Virus record (IMG/VR): IMGVR_UViG_3300045988_147415
DNA from: a virus
Lineage: Duplodnaviria > Heunggongvirae > Uroviricota > Caudoviricetes
Direction: 5' to 3' (one strand)
DNA: 63,014 nucleotides
Numbering within the stretch: position 1 is the stretch's first letter; every line of letters starts with the position of its first letter. A program made the position numbers and the translations under genes. Below the pieces are notes generated by a model. It made no database searches, was not told the origin of the DNA, and was given only the letters and a program-made list of their open reading frames with translations. Shown in pieces: positions 40,941 through 61,522 of this stretch.

Positions 40941-42149
40941 TTATTTCCCATAAAGATCTTCTACACCCCCATTCTTCTTATCCCATTCGTTCGCCCATAC
41001 CCGGCAAGCGTCAATGATTTCCTGACGACGATCTCCTTGCATGAACGGGATGCTTTCATGGAAACAGCTTGGAATGCAGGCCACACTGAATACAGTATCA
41101 AACTCCGTCTGCTTGATTGCCTCCAGCGTCTCCGGACGCATTTTTAATTCATCGATTGGCGCATCCTTAGAGTCCATAATCCGGCGATATAAGCGCGGAA
41201 AATCCGTCTCCAGGTACGCCATAATTTTATCTGCGAGACATTCGTCTATGTCGGTATTCCAGTCCTTTTCGAAGCCCGGCAGGCGATAGTAAAGCGGCGT
41301 TCCCCATACCGATGGGATCACATCCATCGTTAACAGGCGATTGGTTCTGATTTGTTGATGGTAATTAGCCGTCAGCAGTGCTTCGCCACGCTGCCCAGTT
41401 TCCGCAACCAGGCCGTGTGGATACTCATGGATGTAGGCAATGGCATCCCTTCCATCATACATAAGTGGAAATGTCTCTGGTCTTTGTCCCATGCCACAAG
41501 CACGGTTCAGATCGTGACCAAGCTGTGAGCACTCTCGCTTTAATGTTTCGATAATGCTCTGCGCTGTAGCCAACTTTTTACGCAGTGTGACGCCTTCGCC
41601 TTGATAATCAATGCATTGCTGATTGAGCTTGGTTAAACGCTCTTTTAGTTCCCGGCGCTCTCTTTTCAGCGTGCGGTTATCCTTCTCCGCAACATCCAGC
41701 CGCTTTGTCAGGCTGGGCGGATAGTCTTTTTTGTAACGGTTCAAATCGGCTTCGGCAGATTTACGCAGTGTATTTGCCTGTTCAAGACGCGCTTCCAGAT
41801 TGCCGATCTCATTACGCATATTCGCGGCAAATTGATTAACTGCATCACCCAGGCTTTCAACTGTCGCTGATACGCCTGTGACTTGTGAAAAACGGATCAA
41901 GCCATCATTAACGGCTTGTTGGTATTCCTCAAACTGATCCACCAGCTTATTGTAATCAACTGCCCCATCATCAAGCAGCTTGTTGATTTCCGCCACCAGG
42001 TTATCTGTAGTGGCAATGACACTCTCGTGCAGTCGCTTTGACAGGTCATCACCCGGATTCCGTTTCTGTATAAGAGCGATTTGTGTGCGCAGCGTTTCAA
42101 TTGCTGTCGAGATAATTTCCAGATTAGAAGTATCAGTGTGTTGACTCAT
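40941..42149 (-). CDS. hypothetical protein (N-terminal coiled-coil, C-terminal globular domain)
   Basis: Start set at internal ATG (MSQHTD) because the ORF-track start is GTG; operator motif directly upstream. Confidence 0.5.
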   Translation of the reverse strand: MSQHTDTSNLEIISTAIETLRTQIALIQKRNPGDDLSKRLHESVIATTDNLVAEINKLLDDGAVDYNKLVDQFEEYQQAVNDGLIRFSQVTGVSATVESLGDAVNQFAANMRNEIGNLEARLEQANTLRKSAEADLNRYKKDYPPSLTKRLDVAEKDNRTLKRERRELKERLTKLNQQCIDYQGEGVTLRKKLATAQSIIETLKRECSQLGHDLNRACGMGQRPETFPLMYDGRDAIAYIHEYPHGLVAETGQRGEALLTANYHQQIRTNRLLTMDVIPSVWGTPLYYRLPGFEKDWNTDIDECLADKIMAYLETDFPRLYRRIMDSKDAPIDELKMRPETLEAIKQTEFDTVFSVACIPSCFHESIPFMQGDRRQEIIDACRVWANEWDKKNGGVEDLYGK

Positions 42150-42166
42150 TGCTGTTCCCGTCACCT

Positions 42167-42193
42167 TGTTAAATTAGTTTTCTAACATATTTT
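42167..42193 (+). promoter_or_regulatory. operator-like motif CCTTGTTAAATTAGTTTTCTAACATAT
   Basis: Near-identical to the reverse complement of the site at 54320-54346; about 20 bp upstream of the 40941..42149 start. Confidence 0.45.
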
Positions 42194-42230
42194 ATTAGTT
42201 TGATGGCGGTATCGGAAGATGCAATAAACA

Positions 42231-42257
42231 AAAAACCCGCTAATTGGCGGGTTTTTA
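42231..42257. terminator. bidirectional Rho-independent terminator
   Basis: AACCCGC-TAATTG-GCGGGTT flanked by an A-run and a T-run. Confidence 0.55.
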
Positions 42258-42262
42258 TGCAA

Positions 42263-42577
42263 TTACTGTGTTGCAGCCTGATAAATAAGATACGCGATAA
42301 ATACAGGTACGATGGCCCATTGCAGCAATGAAAGTAGCCTCATTACTGTTATTGGGGTAACTCCATTCACGTATTGCTTCTCTGACATTTTCCCTAACCA
42401 ACTAACCGACAACAGTGCCGAGTTTTCCCCCAATTCCAGCTCTCTGAGAGCTTCACGGATTAACGGCGCTGTCACAGCCTTAACCGGCGTGCTCAACGTG
42501 ATACTCCGCGTCCTCCCCGCATCGTCAGCGAACGCCAGACTCACATAATATTTTTTGCTCAATGTACAAACTCCCAA
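42263..42577 (-). CDS. hypothetical protein with C-terminal transmembrane helix
   Basis: 104 aa; hydrophobic C-terminus (WAIVPVFIAYLIY); followed by a terminator. Confidence 0.4.
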   Translation of the reverse strand: MGVCTLSKKYYVSLAFADDAGRTRSITLSTPVKAVTAPLIREALRELELGENSALLSVSWLGKMSEKQYVNGVTPITVMRLLSLLQWAIVPVFIAYLIYQAATQ

Positions 42578-42759
42578 TCATCAGCGCTTGCACTTTCCGG
42601 GGTTATGTGAACCTTATCGCCAGTAACAATATTGCGAGCTTCAAAACTTCCATTGATACGTTTCGAGATCTCAATACATAGAGCCTGCTGCCATGAGCGA
42701 CGACGAGCGATAGCATTAGTTCCTGCAGGGATAAGTTCTGCCACGTTAAGTAAACGCAA
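42559..42759 (-). CDS. hypothetical small protein
   Basis: 66-aa ORF overlapping the downstream gene by 19 nt. Confidence 0.35.
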   Translation of the reverse strand: MRLLNVAELIPAGTNAIARRRSWQQALCIEISKRINGSFEARNIVTGDKVHITPESASADDWEFVH

Positions 42760-42773
42760 AACGATTTCTCCGT

Positions 42774-43265
42774 TTAATCAAGACAAACATATTCCGTGAT
42801 AGCTTTTATGGCTTCAGCGGCACTGCGCGCCTCAAAGCAGTAGTAACCTGCTTCAGTGAGGCGAGTCATCCAGACGAGTTGTTCGGGAGTCAGGCGATTT
42901 CTCCCATGTTTCATCTCAATGCGCATTCCGTGGTATCCCCCGCAAGCAAGGTCTATAGAAAGATCGGGATATCCCTTCTTTTGGCCTTCTGCCACCATCT
43001 TTATTGCCGTCCTTATGCCTCGCAGACCGCCGTTTGGAGTGGCGTGAGTATGCTCATACACATAGCGCATATTGCGATACAACCAATCCAGGACGCGAAC
43101 CTGTTCGTAATGCTCATGGTTCCTTTTGATTAGATCTGGGTTTTTCTCCAGTTCTCTGAGAGCTGCGGCATGTGGGGATGTTTCAGAATATTCACTGCGA
43201 CGCCTTCTTTTTCGCGCTATTTTTCTAACACACCCATTGATAGTAAATAAGCGAAATAATAACAA
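42774..43265 (-). CDS. VRR-NUC domain nuclease
   Basis: HEHYEQVRVLDWL...HATPNGG...GYPDLSI...GGYHGMRIEMK...LTPEQLVWM pattern of VRR-NUC; start uncertain because an operator motif lies within the first 20 codons. Confidence 0.55.
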   Translation of the reverse strand: MLLFRLFTINGCVRKIARKRRRRSEYSETSPHAAALRELEKNPDLIKRNHEHYEQVRVLDWLYRNMRYVYEHTHATPNGGLRGIRTAIKMVAEGQKKGYPDLSIDLACGGYHGMRIEMKHGRNRLTPEQLVWMTRLTEAGYYCFEARSAAEAIKAITEYVCLD

Positions 43266-43404
43266 CTACGTTAGATTTGTAAAACAAGAGAGATACTACT
43301 CAAGGATGGGCTATATGCAACAGGTCGGATTTGCTTTTAGAGTAAAGAGTGACCTTAATCAACAAGGAGGGTAAATCGCATGGCATTTACCCAACCTGTT
43401 ATTT

Positions 43405-43665
43405 TTAAAGGGTTATTTTATCCTGTTCGGATAATTCTTTGATTGTCTTGTCGATTGCGATCAACCAACCTTCATAGGTTAAATCATCAACAAGTTCTAC
43501 CAACTTATCATCGGTGTGAGGAAAGTATATCCAGCTCCAGTTCGCAGGGTTTTCTGCTTTTCGCAGCGTAAAAACCTTCTTGTATCGGTGGAACTCAAGG
43601 ATATACCCCTTCGATATGGAATATTCCTTTAGGTCTTCGACCGTAAACCTACGATTCTTTCGCAT
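43405..43665 (-). CDS. hypothetical small protein
   Basis: 86-aa ORF coupled to the upstream gene. Confidence 0.4.
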   Translation of the reverse strand: MRKNRRFTVEDLKEYSISKGYILEFHRYKKVFTLRKAENPANWSWIYFPHTDDKLVELVDDLTYEGWLIAIDKTIKELSEQDKITL

Positions 43666-43667
43666 GG

Positions 43668-44102
43668 CTACCCCATGATTCGATATTTCTCTATAGACTC
43701 GTCGTAACTTGTGTACACGTATGGCTCTGTATCATCAGCATAAGGTGCGACTTCCAGAGCATGAACGGGATTGTATACCGCGTCATTTTCCAGGCGATCG
43801 CTCGAATACAGATGCCCAGCCAAAACCGTAAGCGCCGGGCGACTCATTTTGTAGATCTCTGCCACATCACTATCTACAACTTGTCCAAATGATATGTCGC
43901 CGCGCTCCAGCAATATCGTTTTGAGCGCGGGCCACCACGGACCATAAAGGTGATAAAGCTGTGGATTTTTCTTCAGTCTTTCTACCATGCCATCAAGATA
44001 AACTGTCAGGTATTCTTCTTCACTCCTGCCATTGAGCGCCTGCGGCAAAATGTCCTCAAGGTAGGATTCCGTCGGTTTTACAGTGTCAATTAATGTCGTC
44101 AT
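43668..44102 (-). CDS. hypothetical protein (second gene of the giant-protein operon)
   Basis: 144-aa ORF 36 nt downstream of the giant gene. Confidence 0.45.
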   Translation of the reverse strand: MTTLIDTVKPTESYLEDILPQALNGRSEEEYLTVYLDGMVERLKKNPQLYHLYGPWWPALKTILLERGDISFGQVVDSDVAEIYKMSRPALTVLAGHLYSSDRLENDAVYNPVHALEVAPYADDTEPYVYTSYDESIEKYRIMG

Positions 44103-44138
44103 TCAAATTCGGCCCCGGTTGGGGCCGCTCCTTATCTG

Positions 44139-47100
44139 TTAGGCCGCATCGGCGATTATTTTACGCAGTTCATCTACCGAGTAACGCGTAGATACCATCC
44201 ATGCAGGACGGTCAAAGTTCACATCAGCAACCGGGTTTGCTTCAAAATTCCAGAAACGCCCGCCAATCTTCTTAATCGCGTCTTTGGCGTTCCGTATTGT
44301 CGAGGAACCTGGTTGGTCGGCAATGAGATAAACCGCGCCAACGTCCTCGCTGACGCTCCACCAGCGCCCGCGAACACGCGCCTTAGCGCGAATCGGCTTA
44401 TCATTAACCACAATGATATAGTCATCATTCGCCGCTTCATCAGCTCTGGCTTCAGCCACTGCCGCCTGCTCTTCTCTTTTGCTTTCAGCCTGCTCAAGCC
44501 TTTCCGCGATCTCTGATTCAGTGGCCCCGCCGTTTTTCAGCGATACATAGTCCTGCCACGTTGCCGATTTGAGCGTATCCGGCAACTCATTCACATAGTC
44601 GCCGTCTTTCAACTCACGGGCGCGGCGGGTAGCCATTTCTACCAGGCGATTAACAGAAACAGCATCAGCAAAATCGTCCTTACTAATGTATTTTTCATCA
44701 AATGCATTGATGACAGCCCCCACCTTAATCCACTGTGCTGCCGGTGATTCCAGGGGGTTATCAGCCTGAACAATGGCGAGTTTCGCTCCATCTACCCCAT
44801 TATTCGCCAGCTGTTCCAATGCCGCCCATCCATCTGCATCACTGAGTGATTTATATTGCTCAAACAATGCATCGCGCCAGGCCACCAGCGCAGAACGTGT
44901 TTTTTCGATCTTCGTCTTAATTTTCGCTATCTTGACCTGATTAAACATCCGTTCAATATCATCGATATTGCTAAAGGCTTTCATCCTGCCCTGGAATAAA
45001 CGGTATGCCAGCACGGTCCTCCAGAATGATTCCAGACCTTCTCCGGACGGTTTGCGGAACAAGCTAAGAATATCTTCAGAAGTGACTTTATTAAGCGAAC
45101 GACCTGACAGACCACGCCCAGCCATCCAGTTTTCGAACTCCTGGGCAACATCATCCATCGTTGCCTGTGCGCCCCATGCCTGCATTCCCTGGATGTAATC
45201 ATACCCATACAATGCCTGGAGGAATCCCTCTCCGTCCACGATATTCAGCGGATTATCACTGGCTTGTATTTTTGCCACTTCACGCTTCAGCGCCTCATTG
45301 TTGATATCAGGGTAAATCCACTGCTCTGGTGCAATATCCGATGTACGCCCGATTTTCTGTCCTATCATGCCATCATAGGTCGATGACAGCGCGATCTGAC
45401 CATCATCGGTGCGATAGGCCCAGTATTTAATACCTGGTTCACCGCCCCATGCTCTACCAGGCTGGCCTGTAGTGACCTTCATTACTCCGTTACGAATAGC
45501 ATCATAGAACTGATCGCGAGTAAGTGACGTTGATAGCTGGTGGCACTGAACACCACGCGCAGCTGTTGCACGCGATTCTGCAACACCCTCTTCAAAAGTT
45601 ACCGCTTCAATCACTGAGTCAAACGGTAATGTTACGATTGACCCCGGTGATCGAGCGTAACGGCTTGCTCTATCCAGCCAGGCGATACGACAGATGTATT
45701 GTGCTTTTTCACCATCAATTTTTTCCACCCGGACAATCGCTGTTGTTTCGCGATCATCAATGACTGCACGGTAATAACTACCTTTATGCAACAGAATGTT
45801 CTTGTCAGTGCGCATATATTCTTGCGGGTTCTGAATAACATCGATGCTGATATCCAGCACACCAGACTTAATAGCGCGTTCCACATCACCACGAGAGCGT
45901 TTCATAATGGTATCCGCGTCTTTTGCCCTGGTGATCGCAAACCGCAGCACCCGCGCACGTTTTCTGTAGCTACTCAACTGCTCAAGCGCGTATTTTTGCC
46001 CATTCCTGTTCGTACCCGCTTTTATCAGGTCGTCAAGATTGCGCTGGTAATACTCTATCTGTTCCATCGCGCTTTTCAGTTCTGTCTCCATCATGCCGAT
46101 ATCTTTTCCGGCGGCGTTTGCCGCTTTCAGGTAGATATCGAGAGCATTGTTGGCCTCGCGCTGTGCTTTCAGTTTCAGACGTTCTTCACGCTCTTGCGCC
46201 TGGCGAGCCATGATTGCGCGGCGTTCTTCCGGGTTTGCCGCCAGCATAATGGCGCGTTCATCAGCATCATCCGCATCACCATTGGCGATCTCTGACATGT
46301 CGGATGTCATCACCATCTTGATCCAGTCTTTCTTACGTTTCAGCGTATCCAGACGGAAGTCGTCGAATGTGCCTTTGCCACAATAGTAGTGAACATTGAC
46401 CTTTTCTTGCGGTGAACCTACGCGCGCACCGCGCCCATTTCGTTGGTCGATACTGGCTGGTGTCCAGGGTAGTGTCAGGTGATGGATATCGGTTGTCCCG
46501 ATGTGCAGGTTAATACCTACTTCAGCCTTCTTGTTACAGATTATGATGCGCGTGCGACCTTCGTTATAGTCGGCGGCAATGCCTTCCATGCCCTCAAGGC
46601 CAGCATCATTTTTAGCTGAGAGATAATCCTCATATTGTGCAAGTTTGCTGTAGTAGGTTTCCCATGCCCCTTCTTTGTATTCACCGTTTTTGTTTGGAGT
46701 AGGTTCGGTCGGCTTATTCACCTTCTTCAGCTTGATGCCGCCAGCCTGGCTAACTGTCGTCGCATTGATAATGCCAATCTCCTGCTCCGGCATTTGCAGT
46801 GCACTGGCGATAATACGGCGAAGCTTCTGGTGCTGGGCTTTTTCATCAATAAAGACGATCTGCTTACCGTTCTTCAGACCTTCACGAAGATTTTCGATCA
46901 GCGCGGCATACTTCGGCGGGATGGGGTGCGATACCTGCTGCATATCAATACCGGCAGCCGCAATGGCCTTCAGTATTTCAGCTTCCAGTTCAATGCTGGC
47001 ACGTATTTCAACATGCGTCGGATGTTCACTAAAAGCGGTCTTCACTACCTTGCTGGTACGCGTACTGACCAGCCCGCCAGCGCCGTCTTCCTCGGCCTCA

Positions 47101-50100
47101 TCAACATCATCTGCCACTTTACCGCCAGCTACTTTTGGCAAGGCATCAGCAATAGCTTTTACCTGGTCTGCAAGCTCAACGGGGAACTGGAATGTAATTG
47201 CACTGGCATACAGATCCGGGTCTATAGCAACCTTGTCCATGTCACGGATGATGGAGAAGATGAAATCATCCGGTTTGTCGTTAGTGATATGCCCGTTTTC
47301 ATCGACTGTCAGCTCATCATTGCGACTTAACTCCTGAGCACGCTTACGAAGCTCTTCATAAGCAGTCTCCTGCTCCCCTGTCATCGGGATCTGCAAGGTG
47401 TTCTCGATGATGTCGGGAATTTTAACCGTCGCTCCGACATCTGCAGCAGTCTTCAGAGTGGTCCAACGATGGAAAATACCACGCAGGCCGTCAAGGTTCT
47501 GGAAGCCCACCAGCCCCTGCTTCTCTTCCACTTCCCCGGAAATTTTCTGGACCTGAACTGTGGCTGTTTTGCCAAACACACGAACGAAATCATCAGGCGT
47601 AATGATGCCCATGCGCATCCACTCTTCCTGCGGAATGACAGTAGACAGCATGTTGAAGGCATCAATCGGACTGTTCACCAGCGGAGTTGCCGTCAGCATG
47701 ACTACACCACGCCCGTTGTTGCGTTTCATCATGTACGCAGCTTTTACAGCCATGTCGCGGGCCATCTTGGATACTGCCGGGTTAGGCAAATATGCCAGTT
47801 GTCCCGCTTCACGCCCGGCATTAAAGGAGTTGCGGTAGTTATGCCCCTCGTCGGCAATCACGCTATCGAAGTTCATATCCTCAAAGTACGGGATATTCTG
47901 CTTCTTCGTTGTACCGGTATTCGCGGCCTGATCCTTAATCTTGTTCTTCTTCTGCGCATCACGGTGTTTACCGGACGCCAGGTCAAGACGCCCCATTTCC
48001 ACAGCATTAAAGACAGCTTGCTGTGAGTTCTCCTCGATGGTTTTTTCTCGTAGCGGGATAGACGCGAATTGTTCTTTTGTCATGATGACCGTTCGCCAAT
48101 TTGACGACGGGATCATGTTCATACGCTGAACGATAACGGCGCTGGCGGACTCTTTCACAACATTTCTGGTAAGAGGCTGCCCGTTACTGTCGAGGCGTGG
48201 TTCGCCATTTTCATCAAGCACCGGCGAGGTCAGAATATTTCCGCTGTCATCACGAACTTCATCCAAACCGATAAACATCATATTGGCGAAGGCATCAGCA
48301 CTGTAGAAACTCTGTGCCTCGTGATACCAGTTCTGATAAACCGCCTTCGGAACAACAATACACGTGCGTTTAGTGCGACCTGTTTCGAAGTTATACGCCT
48401 CAAGCGCAAGCGCGGTCGTGGTTTTACCCAGCCCGGTACCAAATCCCATGATGCCGCGCCCATCTTCTGACAAGCGCCGAACTTCTTCATTCTGATAAGT
48501 AAGAGGAATGCGCTTTCCACTAAGCCCTTCCAGGCCAAGCGGTGCGTCAGAATGCGTGAACGGAATGAAACCATTGAATGCGTCGTTATACTCGCGGGCT
48601 ATCTGATCAGCCTGCGGGTGAGTGCGTAACCAGTCGTTAAAACTAACTTCCAGTTGAGCAATTTTATCCAGGTACTCGTTAGCGTTCTGCCCACGCGGTT
48701 TAACACCGTTCAGGTAGTTTTCTAACTGGTTCAGGAAGCCGTCTTTATTGTTGGCCTTCTTGAACTCATTCCCGTTTTTGCCGTTTACGGTTCGTAGCTG
48801 ATAGCCGGTAAATACCCCGTCCTTACCTTCGTAATCGTCCGGAGATACCAGAATGCCATCGACGACCTTCAGATCAGGTTCAGTGTATTTAAACTCGTCA
48901 TAGCCCTGCTCTGCCAGGAACTCTTTTATCAAGCGGCGATCCAGCCAGCGGGCATTCAGATTAACGGTGACTTTATTTAGTGGCGTGAAAATACGTTTCT
49001 CTTCGATTTTCGCCAACTGACGCTCAAAGTTCGCTTTCTGCTCACCTGTTGACGCATCACGCCAGCCCATCAGCAATGCTGTTTTGGTTGCAATATCGCC
49101 GCTGGTGGCGCGGTCCATCGGCAGCAGGCAGCCATACCCATCAATAGCGATATCATCAAATTTCGCCAGGTATTCAAGGGCCGCGTCGTCGTCCTCTGGC
49201 AGTTCACCAGCAAACGCCTCACGAAAGTCTCCCAGCGTTATAGGATTAAGGGCTACATCACTGAAAAGATGTGCTATCACTTGTTCAGGACGTGTAAAGT
49301 CAATACCGGCAGCACCATCCGTTACATCAAGTCGCCCTGCCAGAAGGTCAGAAGTGGAACCATCCTGTTTCACATTGCCAGTGAACGTCATCCAGTTTTT
49401 AGCGCCAGCTTCAGCAAGCCCATTCAGCTTAATGGCGTGCGGTGGTCCATACTTCGCAACTTCTGCTGCCGCCAGGCGGGATGCATCTGCCAGTTTGTCA
49501 TCAACGTTCACACCCAGGTTACGCAAATCAAGTGCCTTGTTGATCAACTGACCTATCAGCGCACCGCGCATAACGCGCTCCCTGTCTTTTTCTCGCTGCT
49601 TGCCAGCAAAGCGAATCATTGCTGCCACTTCATCACTGACAACCGATGGATAGTCGGACGCGATCGCCGATATCTGGTCCCATGACAAAGCCAGAATCCC
49701 GTTTGTTGACTGGAACGCGATCTGCAGATCGCCAAACGTCGAAACACCATATCGACTTACATCAAGCGCGGAGGATTTGGTTGTCGTGTCCTTAACCCAT
49801 TTCAGACCATCAAACTCATGCCAGATACCGCCTACAAGGCGTTTATCGCCCACTTTCGCACCCTGCCATGCCTGAGTAGTTACGCCGAGCAAATCCCAAT
49901 TGATGCGACTATCAAAGCGACGAGATAGCGCGGTTTTCATCGACTCATTGGATACACGACCGTCTTTTTTCACCACCAGGGTATTGCGGAAGCTGGTACG
50001 TTCCATGTCGCCGTAAACAAATCGCTTCCCTTCGGTTGTAAACCATTTTCCTTTGAGGAAGGTATCCCAAAGGACGTTTGCCGATTTGAGTGTTGAATCA

Positions 50101-50975
50101 TCCGTGTCGGGGATCATCTCCAGGAAGGTTTCCGGGTGTTTACGCAATACCCATACGTCCACCACGGTATCTGTACCGGATTCGCTGAACGTACCAGAAG
50201 GCATACGATGTGCGCCCAAAAATTCCGCTTTACGGCTGACTTTATCGCGCAATTTTTTATATTTCGCACCATCGGTCATGCCATTCGGCACCACCAATAC
50301 GATAAGCCCACCAGGCTTAACCTTGTCGATCGTGCGCAGCACAAAGTAATTGCCAACGTTCTTCTCGTTTGCATATGCCGGATCAAGCCCGGCGACACCG
50401 GAACGCCCTTCACCAAACGGTACGTTACCAACAGCGTGATCATACATTGCGTCTTTCGCCGCCAGCGCCTCAAACGCCCCGATATTCACATCGTCTTCCG
50501 GGTGCAAAAGCTGGTTTATTCGACCGGAAATCGGAGACAGTTCGGCGCTGGTCATTATCATGCCCTGCCGTTTTGTCTCCTGGAAAATACCTGTGCCCGC
50601 TGATGGTTCCAGTACGTGCCCGCCATCAATACCGTAGTCAGCAAACAGATCCCATATACCTTCAGCCATAAACTGTGGCGTGTAGTATTCGTATTGGCTG
50701 CCCTCACCATCTGTCAGGCCGCCTTCACCGGTATACCCGGCAAGAATCTGACGTTGTTCGTCAGTTAATTTCGCCCCATCGAAGCCGGGCGGAAGGGAAT
50801 TAAGAAGATCTACTGCGGCATTATTTGCTGCCCGGCGTGTTTTCTGAATACTGACGCCATCGGCTTTCCTGACGCCAAAGGTCGCAACAGCACGTAATTT
50901 ATGCAACCGACTAACAATTTCAATCAGTTCGCCTAAGCTGGAGGCTTCACTGATTGAATGAAGTAGTTTGTCCAA
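44139..50975 (-). CDS. darB: 2278-aa DNA methyltransferase-helicase fusion (DarB-like putative antirestriction protein)
   Basis: N-terminal SAM-MTase motif I (LEPSAGTGIF) and N6-adenine motif IV (NVPFGEG); central SF2 helicase motifs (GLGKTT, DEGHNYRN, LTATPLVNSP, QRNGRGARVGS); AGAGGGGGA RBS. Confidence 0.8.
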   Translation of the reverse strand: MDKLLHSISEASSLGELIEIVSRLHKLRAVATFGVRKADGVSIQKTRRAANNAAVDLLNSLPPGFDGAKLTDEQRQILAGYTGEGGLTDGEGSQYEYYTPQFMAEGIWDLFADYGIDGGHVLEPSAGTGIFQETKRQGMIMTSAELSPISGRINQLLHPEDDVNIGAFEALAAKDAMYDHAVGNVPFGEGRSGVAGLDPAYANEKNVGNYFVLRTIDKVKPGGLIVLVVPNGMTDGAKYKKLRDKVSRKAEFLGAHRMPSGTFSESGTDTVVDVWVLRKHPETFLEMIPDTDDSTLKSANVLWDTFLKGKWFTTEGKRFVYGDMERTSFRNTLVVKKDGRVSNESMKTALSRRFDSRINWDLLGVTTQAWQGAKVGDKRLVGGIWHEFDGLKWVKDTTTKSSALDVSRYGVSTFGDLQIAFQSTNGILALSWDQISAIASDYPSVVSDEVAAMIRFAGKQREKDRERVMRGALIGQLINKALDLRNLGVNVDDKLADASRLAAAEVAKYGPPHAIKLNGLAEAGAKNWMTFTGNVKQDGSTSDLLAGRLDVTDGAAGIDFTRPEQVIAHLFSDVALNPITLGDFREAFAGELPEDDDAALEYLAKFDDIAIDGYGCLLPMDRATSGDIATKTALLMGWRDASTGEQKANFERQLAKIEEKRIFTPLNKVTVNLNARWLDRRLIKEFLAEQGYDEFKYTEPDLKVVDGILVSPDDYEGKDGVFTGYQLRTVNGKNGNEFKKANNKDGFLNQLENYLNGVKPRGQNANEYLDKIAQLEVSFNDWLRTHPQADQIAREYNDAFNGFIPFTHSDAPLGLEGLSGKRIPLTYQNEEVRRLSEDGRGIMGFGTGLGKTTTALALEAYNFETGRTKRTCIVVPKAVYQNWYHEAQSFYSADAFANMMFIGLDEVRDDSGNILTSPVLDENGEPRLDSNGQPLTRNVVKESASAVIVQRMNMIPSSNWRTVIMTKEQFASIPLREKTIEENSQQAVFNAVEMGRLDLASGKHRDAQKKNKIKDQAANTGTTKKQNIPYFEDMNFDSVIADEGHNYRNSFNAGREAGQLAYLPNPAVSKMARDMAVKAAYMMKRNNGRGVVMLTATPLVNSPIDAFNMLSTVIPQEEWMRMGIITPDDFVRVFGKTATVQVQKISGEVEEKQGLVGFQNLDGLRGIFHRWTTLKTAADVGATVKIPDIIENTLQIPMTGEQETAYEELRKRAQELSRNDELTVDENGHITNDKPDDFIFSIIRDMDKVAIDPDLYASAITFQFPVELADQVKAIADALPKVAGGKVADDVDEAEEDGAGGLVSTRTSKVVKTAFSEHPTHVEIRASIELEAEILKAIAAAGIDMQQVSHPIPPKYAALIENLREGLKNGKQIVFIDEKAQHQKLRRIIASALQMPEQEIGIINATTVSQAGGIKLKKVNKPTEPTPNKNGEYKEGAWETYYSKLAQYEDYLSAKNDAGLEGMEGIAADYNEGRTRIIICNKKAEVGINLHIGTTDIHHLTLPWTPASIDQRNGRGARVGSPQEKVNVHYYCGKGTFDDFRLDTLKRKKDWIKMVMTSDMSEIANGDADDADERAIMLAANPEERRAIMARQAQEREERLKLKAQREANNALDIYLKAANAAGKDIGMMETELKSAMEQIEYYQRNLDDLIKAGTNRNGQKYALEQLSSYRKRARVLRFAITRAKDADTIMKRSRGDVERAIKSGVLDISIDVIQNPQEYMRTDKNILLHKGSYYRAVIDDRETTAIVRVEKIDGEKAQYICRIAWLDRASRYARSPGSIVTLPFDSVIEAVTFEEGVAESRATAARGVQCHQLSTSLTRDQFYDAIRNGVMKVTTGQPGRAWGGEPGIKYWAYRTDDGQIALSSTYDGMIGQKIGRTSDIAPEQWIYPDINNEALKREVAKIQASDNPLNIVDGEGFLQALYGYDYIQGMQAWGAQATMDDVAQEFENWMAGRGLSGRSLNKVTSEDILSLFRKPSGEGLESFWRTVLAYRLFQGRMKAFSNIDDIERMFNQVKIAKIKTKIEKTRSALVAWRDALFEQYKSLSDADGWAALEQLANNGVDGAKLAIVQADNPLESPAAQWIKVGAVINAFDEKYISKDDFADAVSVNRLVEMATRRARELKDGDYVNELPDTLKSATWQDYVSLKNGGATESEIAERLEQAESKREEQAAVAEARADEAANDDYIIVVNDKPIRAKARVRGRWWSVSEDVGAVYLIADQPGSSTIRNAKDAIKKIGGRFWNFEANPVADVNFDRPAWMVSTRYSVDELRKIIADAA

Positions 50976-51126
50976 AGGATTTCCCCCTCTAAACCGTAAA
51001 AAATTCCGCTATGCGGTACGATTGAGAGGGTATGGAGAATGTTATTTTCAGGGGGACGATACTACCGTCAAAATCACATACTCCCCATAGTTTGCCTACT
51101 TATTAACCCATGACCGGGAGAAAAAT

Positions 51127-51612
51127 ATGGCAAACATTGAACCTCGCTGGCTAATTGAAGCCCGTAAGCACATTGGCCTGACTGAAATAAAAGGCGCTAA
51201 ACACAACCCTGAAATCGTTCAGTTCTGGCGCGACATCAAGCGCGGCGGAATTAAAGACGATGAAACGCCGTGGTGCGCAGCATTTGTCGGTGCAATGCTG
51301 GAACGTGTAGGCATCCGCTCAACAAGATTTGAGTCGGCAAAATCCTATCTGGATTGGGGCGAGAAATTAGATACACCGGCATACGGATGTATCGTTGTAT
51401 TTACCCGCGTAGGCGGTGGGCACGTAGGCTTCGTTGTCGGACGCCGCGCCAATGGCGATCTGCTTGTCCTGGGTGGGAACCAGGGGGATGCGGTTAATAT
51501 TCGCGCATTCCCAACATCAAGAGTGTCTGGCTATCGCTGGCCTGCTGGCGAACCACGCAATACCGCTCTGTTACCAGTCGGAGACGCAGCAACCTCAACT
51601 AATGAGGCATGA
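51127..51612 (+). CDS. TIGR02594-family protein (CHAP/NlpC-P60-like putative peptidoglycan peptidase)
   Basis: Conserved WCAAFV...GCIVVF...GGGHVGFVVG pattern (Cys/His dyad). Confidence 0.5.
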   Translation: MANIEPRWLIEARKHIGLTEIKGAKHNPEIVQFWRDIKRGGIKDDETPWCAAFVGAMLERVGIRSTRFESAKSYLDWGEKLDTPAYGCIVVFTRVGGGHVGFVVGRRANGDLLVLGGNQGDAVNIRAFPTSRVSGYRWPAGEPRNTALLPVGDAATSTNEA

Positions 51613-51637
51613 AAAAAGCCCCGGCCAGGCCGGGGCA
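51611..51637 (-). terminator. Rho-independent terminator after the split antirepressor gene
   Basis: GCCCCGGCC-AGG-CCGGGGC followed on the minus strand by UUUUUU. Confidence 0.5.
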
Positions 51638-51644
51638 TCACGCT

Positions 51645-51845
51645 TCAAGTCACGATCCAATCATTACCGACTATATCAGCCGTCGATAAATCAACTTCCC
51701 GGATCTGGAGTCCATTAATACAAAACCATCCGGTAGTAGAGTAATTATCAGGCCAGGCCCATACACCAACACTCCATGCTTTACGGCGGCACACTTCAGC
51801 CTGTCCTTCCCTGATTTTTTTTACCGCCTGCATGATGTCCATCAC
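51645..51845 (-). CDS. antirepressor C-terminal domain encoded as a separate ORF (immI-like copy 2)
   Basis: 66 aa aligning with the last 60 residues of the intact antirepressor (...VCRRKAW..GVWAWP...DWIVT); start overlaps the upstream stop (ATGA) in a different frame. Confidence 0.5.
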   Translation of the reverse strand: MMDIMQAVKKIREGQAEVCRRKAWSVGVWAWPDNYSTTGWFCINGLQIREVDLSTADIVGNDWIVT

Positions 51846-52549
51846 TCACCTCCCCAACCGATCACCTGGAATTGCCCCATTTTGGGGTGATACCAGCGTT
51901 TTCCTCGGTGTTCAGCCTCCGACATCATCCGGTTAAAAGCATTCATGAAGGGAGATAAGGCCACGATGGAACGACGCGACAATACCCCCTCTGGAGTTAA
52001 AAACTCATGTGTATCGGTGGGAATCCGGTAAGCGTTGACAAGGTTGCGGCATTTGGCTTCGGTCAGGCCGCATTTTGCCGCCAGCTGGCGGTATCCAATG
52101 TAACCATCTGGCATGTTGCCCTTCTTGATTTGCTCGACGGTTTCTACCACCTGGCTAACCTTTGACTCAACAACATGAAGCCGCTTTTGCTGCTGAACTG
52201 CATTTGCAGCCATTGCGGCGATCATCTCTATTTCGGTCAACGGCTGGCGTGCTTGTTCTTCCAGTTCGCGCCAGCGGTCCACCAGCCGGGCGGTGAATTC
52301 GGGAGAGAGCTGCGCAACGACAATAATGCTGTCTCGTTTGCCTTGCTCGCCTTCGAAGACGTAAGCCTCGACACTACGGCGTAGTCCTAAGTTATTGATT
52401 TTTTCGAAAACCTGCAATGCAGGAAGTTGAATAACTCCAGATTTAGCCAGGCGCTCTATTGATATTTTTACGTTATCTGGACGACTTCCCACCAGCTCCG
52501 CGATCTCAATGCTGGTCATTGATGGCTTTTCAAGAATGCAGATATCCAT
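51842..52549 (-). CDS. ant: antirepressor N-terminal Rha-type portion (immI-like copy 2; gene split relative to copy 1)
   Basis: TSIEIAELVGSRPDNVK Rha N-terminus; high similarity to 12471..13412 over about 230 aa, then terminates early. Confidence 0.65.
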   Translation of the reverse strand: MDICILEKPSMTSIEIAELVGSRPDNVKISIERLAKSGVIQLPALQVFEKINNLGLRRSVEAYVFEGEQGKRDSIIVVAQLSPEFTARLVDRWRELEEQARQPLTEIEMIAAMAANAVQQQKRLHVVESKVSQVVETVEQIKKGNMPDGYIGYRQLAAKCGLTEAKCRNLVNAYRIPTDTHEFLTPEGVLSRRSIVALSPFMNAFNRMMSEAEHRGKRWYHPKMGQFQVIGWGGE

Positions 52550-52773
52550 CAGTGTGCCTCCGCAATGCCGGGATTGGTAATATTGCGATACCAGGGATTA
52601 GTGTTTGGTTGTGGGGAAGTAGAGAAACGACCAGTAAGAACACCATGCTGATCAGGGATCAGAGAACGGGCTTCTTTTTCGGTTGCGGCAATTGCGAAGT
52701 GATCGCAGTGTTTTTGCAGGGAGTGGAAACGCCAGATGAATTCTGGACGTGAGCAAGGATTGGCATTAACCAT
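52549..52773 (-). CDS. icd: Icd-like small protein, immI copy 2
   Basis: 74 aa; paralog of 13412..13627 (PEFIWRFHSLQKH...ATEKEARS); GAGG RBS. Confidence 0.5.
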   Translation of the reverse strand: MVNANPCSRPEFIWRFHSLQKHCDHFAIAATEKEARSLIPDQHGVLTGRFSTSPQPNTNPWYRNITNPGIAEAH

Positions 52774-52829
52774 AGTTACGGCCTCACTAACAGGTTTAAC
52801 AACCTGCTACCCGCTGTCAAACAGGTGGC

Positions 52830-52920
52830 AGGACGTGACAGGGTTGACAGACTGGCGTTAGTGAAACCAGCAGGCCGAAGCCTCCCCATCACGCCCCACC
52901 ATAATTCGGGCGTAACGCGG
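52830..52920 (-). ncRNA. candidate c4-like antisense regulatory RNA, immI copy 2
   Basis: CUGUCAAC element complementary to UUGACAGC sites located about 41 nt before the icd start and again about 170 nt upstream; same geometry as copy 1 with a different sequence; boundaries approximate. Confidence 0.3.
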
Positions 52921-53116
52921 TTTACGGACACAAAAATACCGCAATATCGGAAATCTGCGGTTGTCCGCACTAACATTCAGGCTGTCAAACCTGGTCGCAG
53001 AATTTGCTACGACGGCATGAATATAAGCCTGAAAACATGGAAGATCAACTAAAAATTTCAGCAATGGATGACTTCAGTCGATGATGCAGATCATACATTC
53101 CGATTTAGAAACAGCA

Positions 53117-53135
53117 AATTAATTTTCTAACACAG
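53117..53135 (+). promoter_or_regulatory. operator-like motif AAATTAATTTTCTAACACA upstream of the immI copy 2 operon
   Basis: Recurrent motif about 340 bp upstream of the icd start. Confidence 0.4.
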
Positions 53136-53186
53136 ATTATCGAGCGAGCATTTTCCGATCATTGGGATGTTTTGTAGACACACAGG

Positions 53187-54149
53187 TCATCCCCTAAAGC
53201 CCGCCGGGATTGACCAATCCTCACGGTCAAATTCAGACCGATAGCCACGCTGTTTCATCAGGTCAAAGGCTTCACCAATGGTTGCACACCCCTGGGAGCC
53301 AGAATAATCCATTGAGAAATCCAGGGCACTGGATTGTTTAGGCTTATTCACTGCGGTAGCGGCACTACGTATCCATGCAAATTTTTTTGCCAGCTTTTCA
53401 GCGGTACGATACAGAGCCTGCCGTTTTGCGTGCCCCTCGTCTGAACGACGCTTTGCAGCTCTCGCTTTTGCCGCCGCCAGGCAGTGGTTGGTATGTTCTT
53501 CCCTGATTACTGGTTTTTTATCCAGCCCCCCATTATCCGCTTGAGAACTATCTTCTGGTGAAGCCTTTGGCTGAACCGCGCATGATCTTTCTCTTCTTTT
53601 GGCTATAGAGTGACTCTTATTTTCTATTGGCTGTCCATTTTGAACATGGGGGGACTTGTTCAATTTGAACAGGGGGTTCCCAGTTTCAAAAAAATAACGA
53701 ACCTTTGAAATCAACTGCTTAACCAGTTTTGTGGCGTTGGCAAATTTGATGCCCTGCTTACCCCCTATCTCCATTGCTACATGAATGAAGTGGAGAAATT
53801 GTGTCGTAAACCGATATACGTTACACACCTGGGCATTGTTATTCGCTACCTGATGTTGCTTAACAAGCATTCCGCACTTCGTCGCTTCAGCAAATGCCCG
53901 GCGCACAGTAGAAATACTGCGTCCTGTAATCTCGGACATATCAGCATATGAGCGACGGATCATGTATTCATCGGTAGACCCTGCCAGGTTGGCGAACTCG
54001 GCAATAATGGCGCTATGTGAAGGGGAAAGAAGACCGCTATGACGAGCAAAAAAACTCAACTGATGACCTTTGATTTTTTTGTGGTATTCAGTGTTGTTTT
54101 TATACTCAGAAGTGTTGAAAGTTACTGAAACTGAATTTAAAATACTCAC
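53187..54149 (-). CDS. HTH-containing protein; possible replication/regulatory protein (RepL-like position)
   Basis: Internal HTH (ADMSEITGRSISTVRRAFAEATKCGMLV); own promoter after a terminator. Confidence 0.35.
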   Translation of the reverse strand: MSILNSVSVTFNTSEYKNNTEYHKKIKGHQLSFFARHSGLLSPSHSAIIAEFANLAGSTDEYMIRRSYADMSEITGRSISTVRRAFAEATKCGMLVKQHQVANNNAQVCNVYRFTTQFLHFIHVAMEIGGKQGIKFANATKLVKQLISKVRYFFETGNPLFKLNKSPHVQNGQPIENKSHSIAKRRERSCAVQPKASPEDSSQADNGGLDKKPVIREEHTNHCLAAAKARAAKRRSDEGHAKRQALYRTAEKLAKKFAWIRSAATAVNKPKQSSALDFSMDYSGSQGCATIGEAFDLMKQRGYRSEFDREDWSIPAGFRG

Positions 54150-57108: not shown

Positions 57109-58506
57109 TTAGTTTTCCGTACGGCAATTATTTAGATCTGTAGAATTTTCAAACATAGCAAAGTTCAGACCTTTCCCTTCGCCAAATTCACCCTCAATTT
57201 CATCAGATACAGCAGACAAAATACGACGCAGATCAACATCGCCACCGCCGAACATATCGCCCAATGCCTGTTGTTTATGAGTCAGCTCGTCGTTGATTTT
57301 TTGCGCCATTTTTTTGAATGCTGCCCCCATACGCTTCGCACTGCGATTATTTGCTACGATGAATAACGCCAATGCCTCAGCTTCCGGTGTACTGTCGCCG
57401 AATAACCCCCTTTGGGCGATCACTTCTTCAACGGCCTGACCGTTGTCTTTGGCTTCACGTACAAGATTAATTGCTTCCTGGAGTGCTGCTATCGCCTGTG
57501 TATCCAGGCCATTAACCTGCTCTATACCGTCCACTAAGCCTGTTACTGCGTCATGGTGAGCGTCGCCAGACAGCGACTGCATTTGCGCAAAATCGCTGGC
57601 TGCCGTATTTAATGCGGTCAGGATATTACGCATTTCCGGATCTGGCTCTTCCGACACCAGCCGAACAAGCCTTTCATCCTTGTACGCTTTGGCAAAAATT
57701 GCATTCTGGATGCGATCGATAAGCTGTTTCGTGGGACGCCCATCGGCAGTAAGCAAGCCTGCCGTCGCTGTATCGCCAATTTCGCGCAAAAACGCACGAA
57801 TAAACGCATCATTGGACCGCGCCAGCAGATTTCCATCATCTGAAGGATTAAATAGCGCCATGACGCTCTCAGTGAGAAATTGCGCATCCGCATACGCTTT
57901 TTCACTTGCTGCCATCTCTTGCAGATCGCTAATGTTTGAATCGCGGGCAAATTGAGCGCGGTCTACATCTGTGAGTCTTTCTCGCACCAGTACGGGCATA
58001 GACATTTGCGAAATTTCGTCAGGATTCAGACCAAACTCTTTCGCATGGTCGATCAGGTACTGGCGATACTCATCCGCCTGTCCTTGCTCATAGGCACGCC
58101 AGATACCCATACTCCTTCCGTTGCCGGATTCAACAACGTTGTCCGGACCAACTATCGGCGCTCCGTGGCTGCTCATACCGGAATCCGTTAATTGTGCCGG
58201 GCGTAAATTGGAGGCAATACGGTTAACCTGGAGTTTGCTGGATAGCCGGGTACGATCTCGTGGTTGGAGTTCTTCCGGGAAGGCCGGGTTAATCGTACCG
58301 TCAAGGTTGTTCGAAATGATCAGACTGCTGGCATCAACGACCTTAAAAGCCGTCTTTACCTCTGCACCTTTGCTGGTGACTACGTAGCTACTTCGCCCCA
58401 GGCGTGTTTCTTTCCTCTCTAATGAAGAAACCAGAGCAATGACGCTGTTAATATCTGCGGCCCCGGAAAGCGCAGAAGTAACTGATTTGTTCAAAATACA
58501 CTCCAA
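57109..58506 (-). CDS. hypothetical phage structural protein
   Basis: 465-aa Ala/Glu-rich ORF in the same operon. Confidence 0.35.
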   Translation of the reverse strand: MECILNKSVTSALSGAADINSVIALVSSLERKETRLGRSSYVVTSKGAEVKTAFKVVDASSLIISNNLDGTINPAFPEELQPRDRTRLSSKLQVNRIASNLRPAQLTDSGMSSHGAPIVGPDNVVESGNGRSMGIWRAYEQGQADEYRQYLIDHAKEFGLNPDEISQMSMPVLVRERLTDVDRAQFARDSNISDLQEMAASEKAYADAQFLTESVMALFNPSDDGNLLARSNDAFIRAFLREIGDTATAGLLTADGRPTKQLIDRIQNAIFAKAYKDERLVRLVSEEPDPEMRNILTALNTAASDFAQMQSLSGDAHHDAVTGLVDGIEQVNGLDTQAIAALQEAINLVREAKDNGQAVEEVIAQRGLFGDSTPEAEALALFIVANNRSAKRMGAAFKKMAQKINDELTHKQQALGDMFGGGDVDLRRILSAVSDEIEGEFGEGKGLNFAMFENSTDLNNCRTEN

Positions 58507-58588: not shown

Positions 58589-58957
58589 TTACCCGGCATA
58601 ACCGTTAGCTTTCACCCAGCTTATGGTCTGCTCTTTAGCCTGCTCCAACGTAAGGAACTCGCCAACATAGTTTGAGATCCCACGCAGCGCATCAATAAAT
58701 TCCATTTGTGTGGACTTTGTGAACACACCGCCCAGGAAGTCAGTCACTATCTTAGGGACTTCATCTACAACAGGATCAGTCTGTTGTTGCGGTTCCGCTG
58801 CCGGTTGCGCGGCAGTCCCCAGGCCCAATTTCAGCATCACATCAACAATCTGCTTACCAATGGTGACGCGTTGCAATACTGGCGCAGTTTTCTGCGCCTG
58901 CATTAGATCTGATAGCTCTTTACCTAATTTCAGGCGGTCTAAAACAGAGATGGTCAT
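58589..58957 (-). CDS. hypothetical protein downstream of the DarA-like gene
   Basis: 122-aa ORF coupled to the upstream gene. Confidence 0.4.
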   Translation of the reverse strand: MTISVLDRLKLGKELSDLMQAQKTAPVLQRVTIGKQIVDVMLKLGLGTAAQPAAEPQQQTDPVVDEVPKIVTDFLGGVFTKSTQMEFIDALRGISNYVGEFLTLEQAKEQTISWVKANGYAG

Positions 58958-60894
58958 TAAGCACCTCCCTGCTGAATTTCAGCCAGAATGTTGATCAGGT
59001 AGTCAACTGCTGCACCAACAGTGGCTTCGTTCTCGTCGTATCGACCTGCACTGATTAGAGCGTTTGCAGCTTCCTGCACATGGTCAAGTTCGGCACTGAT
59101 TACCGTCAGATCGCGAGATGTAAACTGCACCGGGACGGATTTAAGGTACTCCAACGCTTTATCTGCTTCCTGATCAGCTTCAGTTGCCGCTTCTTCAGCG
59201 TCTTCCGGCGTTGGCTGTTGCTCTGGTGCTGTTTGTGGGTGTGATTCTGGCTCAACTACAGGTGCTAATTCAGGCTCTGGCGTTGCTTCGTTTGAATGAT
59301 TTTGAAGGGCGTTATATACGTCCATAATGAAAAGGTTCTCCCCATCACCAAGCGGATAAGCCACGTTCGGAAACTCTTTGCGGAAAAGAATTTTTACTTG
59401 CGCCTTGAATGTTTTCAAGTCGCTGCCAAACAGGTCTACATAGCCATCAATGTGTTCTGCCATGCTGGACGCAACCAGTTCCCTCGCCATATTTTTCAGT
59501 TCATCGTCATCAGGTAGATAGCGTAATTCATACTGACTGACTTCTTCATCTGTCAGTTTACGGTCATACGTAATGATACCGTGACGAGCATATTCGTAAT
59601 ACTGATCAGCCTGGTCAGGACGATCAAGCACGGCTTTATTTCCATCCGGCACAGCACCAACACCAGCCGGGCGAGATTGAAGTGCATAGTGGTATTTACC
59701 TACATCTTGGCTCTCTGGTTGTGATACTGGGTTCGTCTCGGGGTCTGTCTGTGGTGGTTCGGAGTCTTCCTGCTGGCCTGGTAACACATCAACTTTATAT
59801 TTATCTGCGTTATGCTCTCGGTAGGCTTTAAGTAATTTGGTTGCAGCATCTGCCAAACTGCCTCCTTTGACAGCACTGGCATCAATACTGAATTTACCTT
59901 CAGGTGCTACTATCGTAACGAAATTGTCACTGCCGGACGTGACATAATTAACTTCAGCGCCATTATCCAGCACTGTTTTTCCGTCAATGGCAAGATTATG
60001 TTTTACATGTCGCAGCTGGTCACTAAACGCTCGCTCTTTCGTTTTTTCACCTTTAGCAGACAACAATTTATCGCGTTTTGCTTGTAATTCCTCGTTGATG
60101 GCTTTCTGGGCATCAAGTTTTTTTTGCATCTCCGTAAGAGCAGCACGCTTTTCAGTCAGCCCACGTTGCGCAACGTCCACCTGATCAATCATTATTGACC
60201 GTTCTTCTGCCAGTTTATCTGCTTCATTGAGATAACTCTCAATATCTGCCTTCATTTTGTCCTGGCGCTCTTTTGCTTTCTTAAATTTTTCGCTGTTACG
60301 CTCAATCAAATTAGATAGCGCCTGGCATACCTGGCTTAAAGAAACATCTCTCCCACCAATCGGGGCGACAACGTGAGTTACGTTACGCTTATTAAGTAAA
60401 AACTGAAATGCAACAAGCTCGTCGTTACTCTTTATTTTTGCCCCGTCAGCTGTTGGAGAGTGGAAAATTATGCTTGTACTCTGCCCGTCAGTAAGCGGTA
60501 TCTGCGCGGTCAAAACAGGGATATTAGCTATCCGACGCACACGACCGATAATCGCACCACCAATACAATTACGTCCATTTTCATCGGTCCCAGCTTCATC
60601 AGTCCCTGCCATAATATTCGTACCATTCAGGCCACGATTCAGCGCACGGACGAAAGCTCGCATTGTTTGAGCTAACCGAATTCTGGTTGTAGTTATGGAC
60701 TCAAACATAGCTTCGTCAGACACAACCAGAATTTCATTGCCCATATAGGCAAGCTCAATATCTTCTAAGGTCGCCGCCTCAAAAATCAGGTCATCTTCGT
60801 TTAATTCTTCTGAAGACCAGCGACTTGGCATATAGCCGGGGATCGTATCAGCAAAAGTAGACTGAATATTAATTCGTAAAGGATTGTTAATCAT
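58957..60894 (-). CDS. large internal-head-type protein (DarA-like by size and operon context)
   Basis: About 645 aa with central coiled-coil and Pro/Glu-rich low-complexity segments; start at internal ATG (MINNPL) with GGAGG RBS. Confidence 0.35.
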   Translation of the reverse strand: MINNPLRINIQSTFADTIPGYMPSRWSSEELNEDDLIFEAATLEDIELAYMGNEILVVSDEAMFESITTTRIRLAQTMRAFVRALNRGLNGTNIMAGTDEAGTDENGRNCIGGAIIGRVRRIANIPVLTAQIPLTDGQSTSIIFHSPTADGAKIKSNDELVAFQFLLNKRNVTHVVAPIGGRDVSLSQVCQALSNLIERNSEKFKKAKERQDKMKADIESYLNEADKLAEERSIMIDQVDVAQRGLTEKRAALTEMQKKLDAQKAINEELQAKRDKLLSAKGEKTKERAFSDQLRHVKHNLAIDGKTVLDNGAEVNYVTSGSDNFVTIVAPEGKFSIDASAVKGGSLADAATKLLKAYREHNADKYKVDVLPGQQEDSEPPQTDPETNPVSQPESQDVGKYHYALQSRPAGVGAVPDGNKAVLDRPDQADQYYEYARHGIITYDRKLTDEEVSQYELRYLPDDDELKNMARELVASSMAEHIDGYVDLFGSDLKTFKAQVKILFRKEFPNVAYPLGDGENLFIMDVYNALQNHSNEATPEPELAPVVEPESHPQTAPEQQPTPEDAEEAATEADQEADKALEYLKSVPVQFTSRDLTVISAELDHVQEAANALISAGRYDENEATVGAAVDYLINILAEIQQGGA

Positions 60895-61522
60895 GCTCAT
60901 CCTCCAGGCGCGCGATTTCTTCTTTAAGAGCACGTGTCTTAGCTACTTCCTGAGACAAGGCAGCTTTAACGTTACCCGTATCTTGCATTACTTTGTCTGA
61001 CTTGCTCTGGAGTTTAGACAGTTTGTCGTTAGCATTAGCGATATCTTCACGGAGTGCATCACGTGATTCTTTCGCTTCAGCTAATTTCTGAGCGTTAGAT
61101 TTAACTCCCTGCCGCTTCTTATTTCCGTCATCAATATTTTTTGCTGCACGAGCAAGTTTTCGAGCTAATGACTTCTGGAAAGAAGTTGCTCCGCGATTAA
61201 ATAAAGCCGCAAGAGATTGCCCCAAAGCCGACATTGTTTTTACTGGCTTGAACGGTACTGTTTTACCATTCAGTTTGATCCCAGATATATCACCGGTATC
61301 GTTAACCTGAACTTCCATTGTCTGTTCATCAATACCAATAAGGGTAAACGTGCGCGTCATGATCCCATCTTTCTTCCTGCCATTACTGGCAGGGATCACC
61401 CTCGCTATCTTGTAACCACCTTTGCTGATTTCTTTGACGAGTTTTGCCAGCCCCTTTTCGTTTAACTCATCATAATTAAGAAGAACATAATTATTCTTAT
61501 TTGACATCCCAGTCTCCTTCAC
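60887..61522 (-). CDS. hypothetical protein with C-terminal coiled-coil
   Basis: 211-aa ORF between the antiholin-like and DarA-like genes. Confidence 0.4.
   Translation of the reverse strand: MKETGMSNKNNYVLLNYDELNEKGLAKLVKEISKGGYKIARVIPASNGRKKDGIMTRTFTLIGIDEQTMEVQVNDTGDISGIKLNGKTVPFKPVKTMSALGQSLAALFNRGATSFQKSLARKLARAAKNIDDGNKKRQGVKSNAQKLAEAKESRDALREDIANANDKLSKLQSKSDKVMQDTGNVKAALSQEVAKTRALKEEIARLEDEHD

Follow-up and report, generated by a model that had tools for sequence, protein, structure and literature searches.

The 63,014-nucleotide virus record IMGVR_UViG_3300045988_147415 of IMG/VR (Caudoviricetes; hereafter the window, meaning the whole stretch of DNA that was analysed) carries one very large gene, at 44139..50975 on the minus strand, which encodes a full-length homologue of the anti-restriction protein DarB of phage P1. 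On the basis of orthology, we assign to it the role that DarB has in P1: it would travel inside the capsid, enter the cell along with the DNA, and act in cis to protect that DNA from type I restriction, a reading to which we give a probability of about 0.85. Judged by its sequence, the window is a D6-like phage-plasmid related to P1, of a kind common in E. coli and Salmonella, and the gene itself is already known, with an annotation in the genome of a published phage and many copies in databases. All named genes and protein regions of the window for which coordinates are given below lie on the minus strand.

The open reading frame (ORF) is complete including its stop codon and encodes 2278 amino acids (aa), a run of stop-free codons with a chance probability of ~3e-48. 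It begins with a TTG codon, and this start is well supported because a strong Shine-Dalgarno sequence (GAGGGGG) lies 6 nt upstream and because the alignment with P1 DarB runs from residue 1, the TTG lining up with Met1 of the P1 protein (BLASTP). A preliminary description of the window, made from the sequence letters, had reported a single ORF at this place that fuses a methyltransferase to a helicase, and our analysis agrees with it in extent and motif content. The methyltransferase motifs that it quoted are found at aa 122–131 (LEPSAGTGIF) and aa 184–190 (NVPFGEG), and the helicase motifs at aa 848–853 (GLGKTT), 1042–1049 (DEGHNYRN), 1095–1098 (TATP), and 1511–1521 (QRNGRGARVGS). The domain search that it proposed as a check was run with Pfam and placed four families above their curated cut-offs: SNF2-rel_dom (46.8 bits vs. 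a cut-off of 24.9) and, by narrow margins, ResIII (24.4 vs. 22.5), Helicase_C (24.3 vs. 23.5), and N6_Mtase (21.0 vs. 20.4).

Compared with P1 DarB (AAQ13985.1, 2255 aa), the protein is 44% identical over aa 1–1935 in BLASTP. In a global alignment of the two, identity is 51–55% in the first 300 residues, 47–69% in the N-lobe of the SNF2 motor, 55–57% in its C-lobe, and 19–26% past residue 1600. Since the two tails are nearly equal in length, and their last 140 residues align at 26% to a shared C-terminal end, we consider the proteins to be collinear throughout. This collinearity, a PHROG match to ‘DarB-like antirestriction’, and the annotation of the corresponding gene in phage D6 together support the DarB-like architecture that had been suggested for this ORF. 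The window shares with P1 the domain order and catalytic motifs of DarB, an adjacent ulx gene, and the presence of hdf, darA, ddrA, and ddrB elsewhere in the genome. The differences from P1 lie in the C-terminal third, where identity drops to ~20%, in the N-terminal targeting segment, which is diverged, and in DdrB, which in the window is of half length; in the window, moreover, the portal and protease genes are not divergently adjacent to darB, and no res/mod cassette follows ulx and lxc.

The D6 counterpart is orf15 (ASR76325.1) of Escherichia phage D6 (MF356679), which GenBank annotates as “defense against restriction; similar to P1 gene darB”. At the DNA level darB of the window is 98.4% identical to it across the full length, and the proteins, both of 2278 aa, have 2245 residues in common and differ by 33 substitutions. 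Positions 39629–57097 of the window are collinear with D6 at 97.7% and carry the same neighbours, and the remainder of the window is likewise D6-like. In PLSDB, 96 plasmids from E. coli and Salmonella (~92 kb) cover at least 80% of positions 38015–63014, and those among the matches listed are 97–99% identical to the window. An identical protein is recorded at NCBI under EFO3079131.1 (“helicase SNF2 [Escherichia coli]”), and clustering at 90% identity places it in a group of 4384 sequences.

At least six DarB lineages, including those of D6 and P1, can be told apart at mutual identities of 38–55%, and most of their members lie on contigs of 63–97 kb or come from Enterobacterales. Across an alignment of six lineages, the invariant methyltransferase motifs are TP, motif I (LEPSA..G.F), and GNVPFG, while GTGLGK..T, DEGHNYRNS, L.ATP, and QR.GRGARVG are invariant in the SNF2 part. 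Mean identity of the lineages to the window protein is 0.5–0.67 in the enzymatic cores and 0.13–0.24 after residue 1600. Word-indexed searches with this C-terminal region, either alone or as a profile of the six lineages, recovered 12 close fragments only, and the other lineages were reached by an exhaustive HMMER search, in which aa 1634–2278 served as the query against 1.84 billion representatives. That search returned 25 proteins in total, and all full-length matches were DarB-like proteins of 2250–2300 aa; by this measure the C-terminal module is found in DarB proteins and in no others.

From the N-terminus, the protein begins with 30 residues (50886..50975) that occupy the position of the capsid-targeting sequence of P1 DarB (PMC9024508) and that AlphaFold2 (AF2) predicts as two short helices with low confidence. 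A helical domain follows at aa 31–95, and its GYTGEGG motif (aa 80–86, of the GxGU type) fits, at the level of the motif, the GxGU motif of the LPD36 domain (PMC5512222). The next domain, aa 91–290 (50106..50705), is assigned to the gamma class of N6-adenine DNA methyltransferases by Pfam N6_Mtase, by matches to HsdM, and by Foldseek, and its motifs are intact: YYTP at aa 97–100, LEPSAGTGIF as motif I, and NVPFG (aa 184–188) as motif IV. Its closest solved relatives, by sequence as well as fold, are type I HsdM subunits with the same order of motifs, namely a Vibrio protein (7eew_A, phmmer E = 1e-4) and, through the family profile, EcoKI HsdM (2y7c and 2ar0, E = 1.3e-3); DarB itself has no solved structure. 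Foldseek with the AF2 model returned only adenine methylases of the HsdM, TaqI, BsaXI, BseCI, CamA, and PglX types; the AF2 model of aa 1–820 was used solely for this class assignment and not for the middle region. Unlike HsdM, the methyltransferase of the window is fused to an SNF2 motor, and the two are only distantly similar (E = 1e-3 to 1e-4). A stand-alone type I HsdM subunit was considered as a candidate and rejected, as no HsdS or HsdR partners are present and the neighbours are ulx and phage genes.

Beyond the methyltransferase lies a middle region, aa 291–822 (48510..50105), which is conserved among DarB proteins only. It matched no Pfam family, and Foldseek gave no PDB match specific to this part; the AF2 predicted local distance difference test (pLDDT) score is ~80–90 for aa 410–800. 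The motor itself is an SNF2/SWI2-type ATPase of superfamily 2 (SF2) at aa 823–1600 (46176..48509), with matches to SNF2-rel_dom, ResIII, and Helicase_C. GLGKTT, DEGH (aa 1042–1045), and TATP lie in its N-lobe and QRNGRGARVG (aa 1511–1520) in its C-lobe; helical inserts of the kind usual for such ATPases are present, one of them at about aa 1221–1345. The remaining third, aa 1601–2278 (44142..46175), is DarB-specific and is predicted to combine long coiled-coil helices with three domains, one rich in beta structure, one helical, and a small alpha/beta domain at the terminus. This fold is predicted with confidence (pLDDT 84.9), and it found no informative structural match in the PDB or BFVD. The arrangement of the first parts corresponds to the methyltransferase-SNF2 dyad that Iyer et al. 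described in 2017 for polyvalent proteins of phages and conjugative elements (PMC5512222), in which a helical GxGU N-terminal domain, an EcoKI/TaqI-like methyltransferase (TP, NxPF), and an SNF2 ATPase stand in the same order as in the window protein. What sets DarB apart from this wider class is the module of aa 1601–2278, which was seen only in P1-like DarB.

By homology, the window holds the complete P1-type Dar set, with ulx directly 3′ of darB and with hdf, darA, ddrA, and a half-length ddrB 6–10 kb upstream. The ulx homologue (43668..44102, 144 aa) lies 36 nt 3′ of darB, is 48% identical to P1 Ulx, and belongs to the PHROG ‘Ulx-like anti-restriction’ (E = 4.6e-59); an ORF of 137–150 aa also follows darB in four other DarB lineages and is detectably Ulx-like in two of them. 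Upstream, hdf (60887..61522) is 40% identical to P1 Hdf, with an Hdf-like PHROG and Pfam DarA_N, and darA (58957..60933) is 38% identical to P1 DarA, carries Pfam DarA_N and DarA_C, and scores 1139 bits with the NCBIfam model anti_RE_DarA, whose cut-off is 350. The ddrA homologue (58589..58957) has 33% identity to P1 DdrA and a DdrA-like PHROG. For ddrB (57109..58506), identity is 64% to aa 2–442 of P1 DdrB. The product is 465 aa long vs. 995 aa in P1, such that the N-terminal half is kept, with Pfam ddrB-ParB at aa 46–177, and the C-terminal half is gone; DdrB of D6 is equally short. D6 also has ~1.1 kb (its orf24 and orf23) separating ddrB from the portal gene, and this is absent from the window (57045–57148 in the window vs. 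4769–5878 of the D6 locus).

The experimental knowledge on which the assigned role draws comes from P1. There, DarB is a head protein of the virion, present in ~40–45 copies (PMC9024508, PMC12810830), which was detected in virions by mass spectrometry and whose N-terminal 30 aa suffice to target a reporter to capsids (PMC9024508). Packaging of these proteins is ordered, and DarB goes in last, needing Hdf, DarA, DdrA, DdrB, and Ulx (PMC9024508, PMC12810830). Deletion of darB renders P1 sensitive to EcoB and EcoK (PMC11109961), and protection is cis-only, extending to the DNA from the same particle (PMC12707154, PMC5512222). The window itself retains type I recognition sites at roughly the expected numbers, with 5 EcoKI sites (AACN6GTGC, 8.9 expected), 14 EcoBI sites (TGAN8TGCT, 10.7 expected), and 2 EcoAI sites (GAGN7GTCA, 6.1 expected). 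We therefore reject escape by avoidance of type I sites, and since these sites are retained, the element must rely on an active countermeasure.

Several points weigh against carrying the P1 role over to the window protein. Over its first 30 residues conservation with P1 is poor, with only 8 of 30 in common (M1, K3, L4, S12, S13, E16, R28, and A29); residues 6–10, which are important in P1, differ, and across the six lineages M1 alone is invariant. DdrB aids the addition of DarB to the P1 capsid (PMC9024508), and in the window it is of half length. The AF2 model of aa 1–820 has a mean pLDDT of 67, with values below 50 over much of the methyltransferase core. Even for P1 the biochemical mechanism is called undefined (PMC11109961, PMC12707154), methylation of entering DNA is so far hypothetical, and the functional experiments on DarB all come from P1. 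Moreover, Chi and EcoKI sites on darB plasmids cause an artefactual alleviation of restriction, which confounds plasmid-based assays of darB (PMC11109961).

As for how such a protein might work, the P1 studies suggest that tens of DarB copies would enter the prohead by means of their N-terminal segment once Hdf, DarA, DdrA, and DdrB have been loaded, and would then be ejected with the DNA, guarding only that molecule against type I restriction of the EcoKI and EcoBI kind. The SNF2 motor would load onto the entering duplex and translocate along it, and the HsdM-like methyltransferase would either methylate adenines ahead of the host enzyme or occupy the DNA, so that type I complexes are blocked from engaging or translocating. 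Action of this kind, coupled to translocation on entering DNA, was proposed by Iyer et al. (PMC5512222). Because both active sites are strictly conserved across lineages that are only 38–55% identical, we argue that both activities are used, and we put this mechanism forward tentatively, at somewhat less than even odds. A serious rival, although we think it somewhat unlikely, is that a protein of this same family protects without catalysis, by coating or blocking the entering DNA, or with its HsdM-like domain acting as a decoy for HsdR or HsdS, in which case the motifs would serve binding that depends on S-adenosylmethionine or ATP. The cis-only action of DarB prompted such a hypothesis of ‘physical occlusion’ (PMC12707154), some 40–45 copies are indeed packaged per P1 virion, and the methyltransferase most closely resembles HsdM, which belongs to the systems that are themselves countered. 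On the other hand, ~45 molecules would be unable to coat ~90 kb of DNA without translocating, and the invariance of all catalytic residues in both modules at this degree of divergence exceeds what binding needs. Other anti-restriction proteins that phages have in place or deliver when infection starts include IPI* of T4 and Ocr of T7. These are like DarB in function, yet they are small inhibitors of restriction enzymes that act in trans, whereas DarB is large, cis-acting, and directed at DNA.

A methylase with an SNF2 motor could also belong to a system that defends cells, and the window protein does show weak local matches to the DrmD, ZorD, DpdE, and BrxHII models. A prophage-encoded defence or restriction-like enzyme directed at other invaders, whether type ISP- or IIG-like or of the DISARM, Zorya, or Dpd kind, is nonetheless very improbable, as Pfam found no nuclease domain in the protein, P1 DarB is a virion protein, and orthology is accompanied by synteny with darB-ulx of P1. 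Membership in the defence-system SNF2 families of NCBIfam and PADLOC was rejected separately: their cut-offs are 500–1100 bits, the best score was 44.5 bits (DrmD, cut-off 610), PADLOC models gave at most 38 bits, and the matches cover motif stretches only. With PADLOC, the neighbours of darB matched no model, and no defence partner genes were found. We give just as little credence to a housekeeping role, in which a helicase joined to a maintenance methylase would serve replication, recombination, or epigenetic upkeep of the phage-plasmid. In its favour, darB lies ~2.2 kb from repL, and the RefSeq name speaks only of an SNF2-related protein or helicase. However, P1 and four other lineages have darB beside portal and protease and not beside repL, the C-terminal module is confined to DarB proteins, and sensitivity to EcoB and EcoK is the only phenotype of a P1 darB deletion described in the cited literature (PMC11109961).

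The C-terminal third evolves fast and is the part most likely to contact variable partners, be they proteins of host defence or proteins inside the capsid. Within the D6-type population, differences cluster in a patch at aa 1626–1925 (45201..46100): over aa 1601–1800, D6-type DarB proteins are either 98–100% identical or, in a second sequence group, 78–83%, and elsewhere they are mostly 97–100% identical. This pattern suggests recombination or diversifying selection in the coiled-coil and beta-rich part of the module. From the ~20% identity between lineages and the variability of this patch, we propose that aa 1601–2278 may be a specificity determinant, and that D6-type DarB with its half-length DdrB might counter another spectrum of defences than P1 does. 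We regard this as speculative and, on balance, unlikely; if it were true, the targets of D6-type elements would be other type I families or non-restriction-modification systems, and variants of the patch would track the defence repertoires of their hosts.

Turning to the surroundings of darB, the preliminary description had noted two small ORFs and a VRR-NUC nuclease gene downstream in the same orientation, and these are present at 43668–44102 (the ulx homologue), 43405–43665, and 42774–43265. The second small ORF (43405..43665, 86 aa), which is orf13-like and belongs to a PHROG of unknown function, occupies the slot of lxc in P1. It is kept after ulx in two further lineages, L004 (13339–13623) and L007 (13341–13652), and in a profile comparison with hhalign it matches P1 Lxc weakly (probability 47%, E = 1.9e-4). 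It may be a diverged Lxc, and it is probably not a Dar component. The third gene (42774..43265, 163 aa) encodes a protein of the VRR-NUC nuclease fold (Pfam VRR_NUC, E = 9.3e-6, 26.1 bits vs. a cut-off of 23.8), is annotated in D6 as ‘similar to P1 pmgM’, and comes with a separate promoter-like site at 43283..43256. We consider this pmgM-like gene a neighbour, with nothing that ties it functionally to DarB.

The placement of darB in a region of virion genes, also claimed earlier, stands for the downstream side, where pmg morphogenesis genes are found, a pmgS-like head gene among them, but fails for the immediate upstream side. Directly upstream are a divergent CHAP hydrolase gene, an anti-repressor/icd-like pair, and repL, and the protease and portal genes come only beyond these. 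In P1 and four other lineages, by comparison, portal and protease are divergent and lie directly upstream of darB. In the window and in D6 they are co-oriented with darB and ~3.4 kb away (window 51127–54349), and this interval holds repL, the icd/anti-repressor pair, a small ORF, and the divergent CHAP peptidoglycan hydrolase.

The intergenic region upstream of darB (50976..51126, minus strand) is common to darB and the divergent CHAP-hydrolase gene and contains the Shine-Dalgarno sequence, a sigma-70-like site, and a −22-like box. The sigma-70-like site lies at 51071..51044 (TTGACG-16-GAAAAT). The box ATGTGATTT (51060–51085, minus strand) is one base off the −22 box of P1 late promoters and has atypical spacing. 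Both are matches to a consensus only. When the Lpa-type late-promoter pattern of P1 was looked for upstream of darB, this one-mismatch box with non-standard spacing was all that was present. The strict pattern, AAGTKAYTW-N4-TAnnnT, was derived from three annotated P1 promoters and has 3 matches in the whole window vs. 1.3 expected. Upstream of the lydA-like gene (62290–62320, minus strand), a box AAGTTAGTG followed by TTAGAT resembles the Lpa-dependent late promoters of P1. A strong hairpin, rich in GC and with a run of T (GCCCCGGCCTGGCCGGGGC TTTTTT), is present at 51618–51636, where it separates the CHAP gene from the convergent small ORF at 51645–51845. It is a likely bidirectional terminator, which would isolate the promoter region of darB from transcription upstream.

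Chi sites (GCTGGTGG) are strongly over-represented across the window (1–63014), with 44 present vs. 1.7 expected, and five of them lie inside darB (44358, 44882, 45536, 47507, and 49101). P1 is also reported to be Chi-rich (PMC11109961). A further difference from D6 is found at 38221–39707 (minus strand), where the window has five tRNA genes (Met-cat, Ser-tga, Thr-tgt, Tyr-gta, and Arg-tct) and the matching region of the D6 record has Asn, Thr, and Ser. This region is only 87% identical to the window or unaligned, and the tRNA cassette is variable.

Taken as a whole, these results describe no new kind of system, and instead confirm that D6-like phage-plasmids hold a complete P1-type Dar set. 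Since RefSeq names such proteins just ‘SNF2-related protein’ or ‘DEAD/DEAH box helicase family protein’, their anti-restriction role is easily missed in surveys of plasmids. For the question of how DarB works, by now almost 40 years old, the invariant active sites, the C-terminal module private to DarB, and the variable patch within it offer experimental handles.

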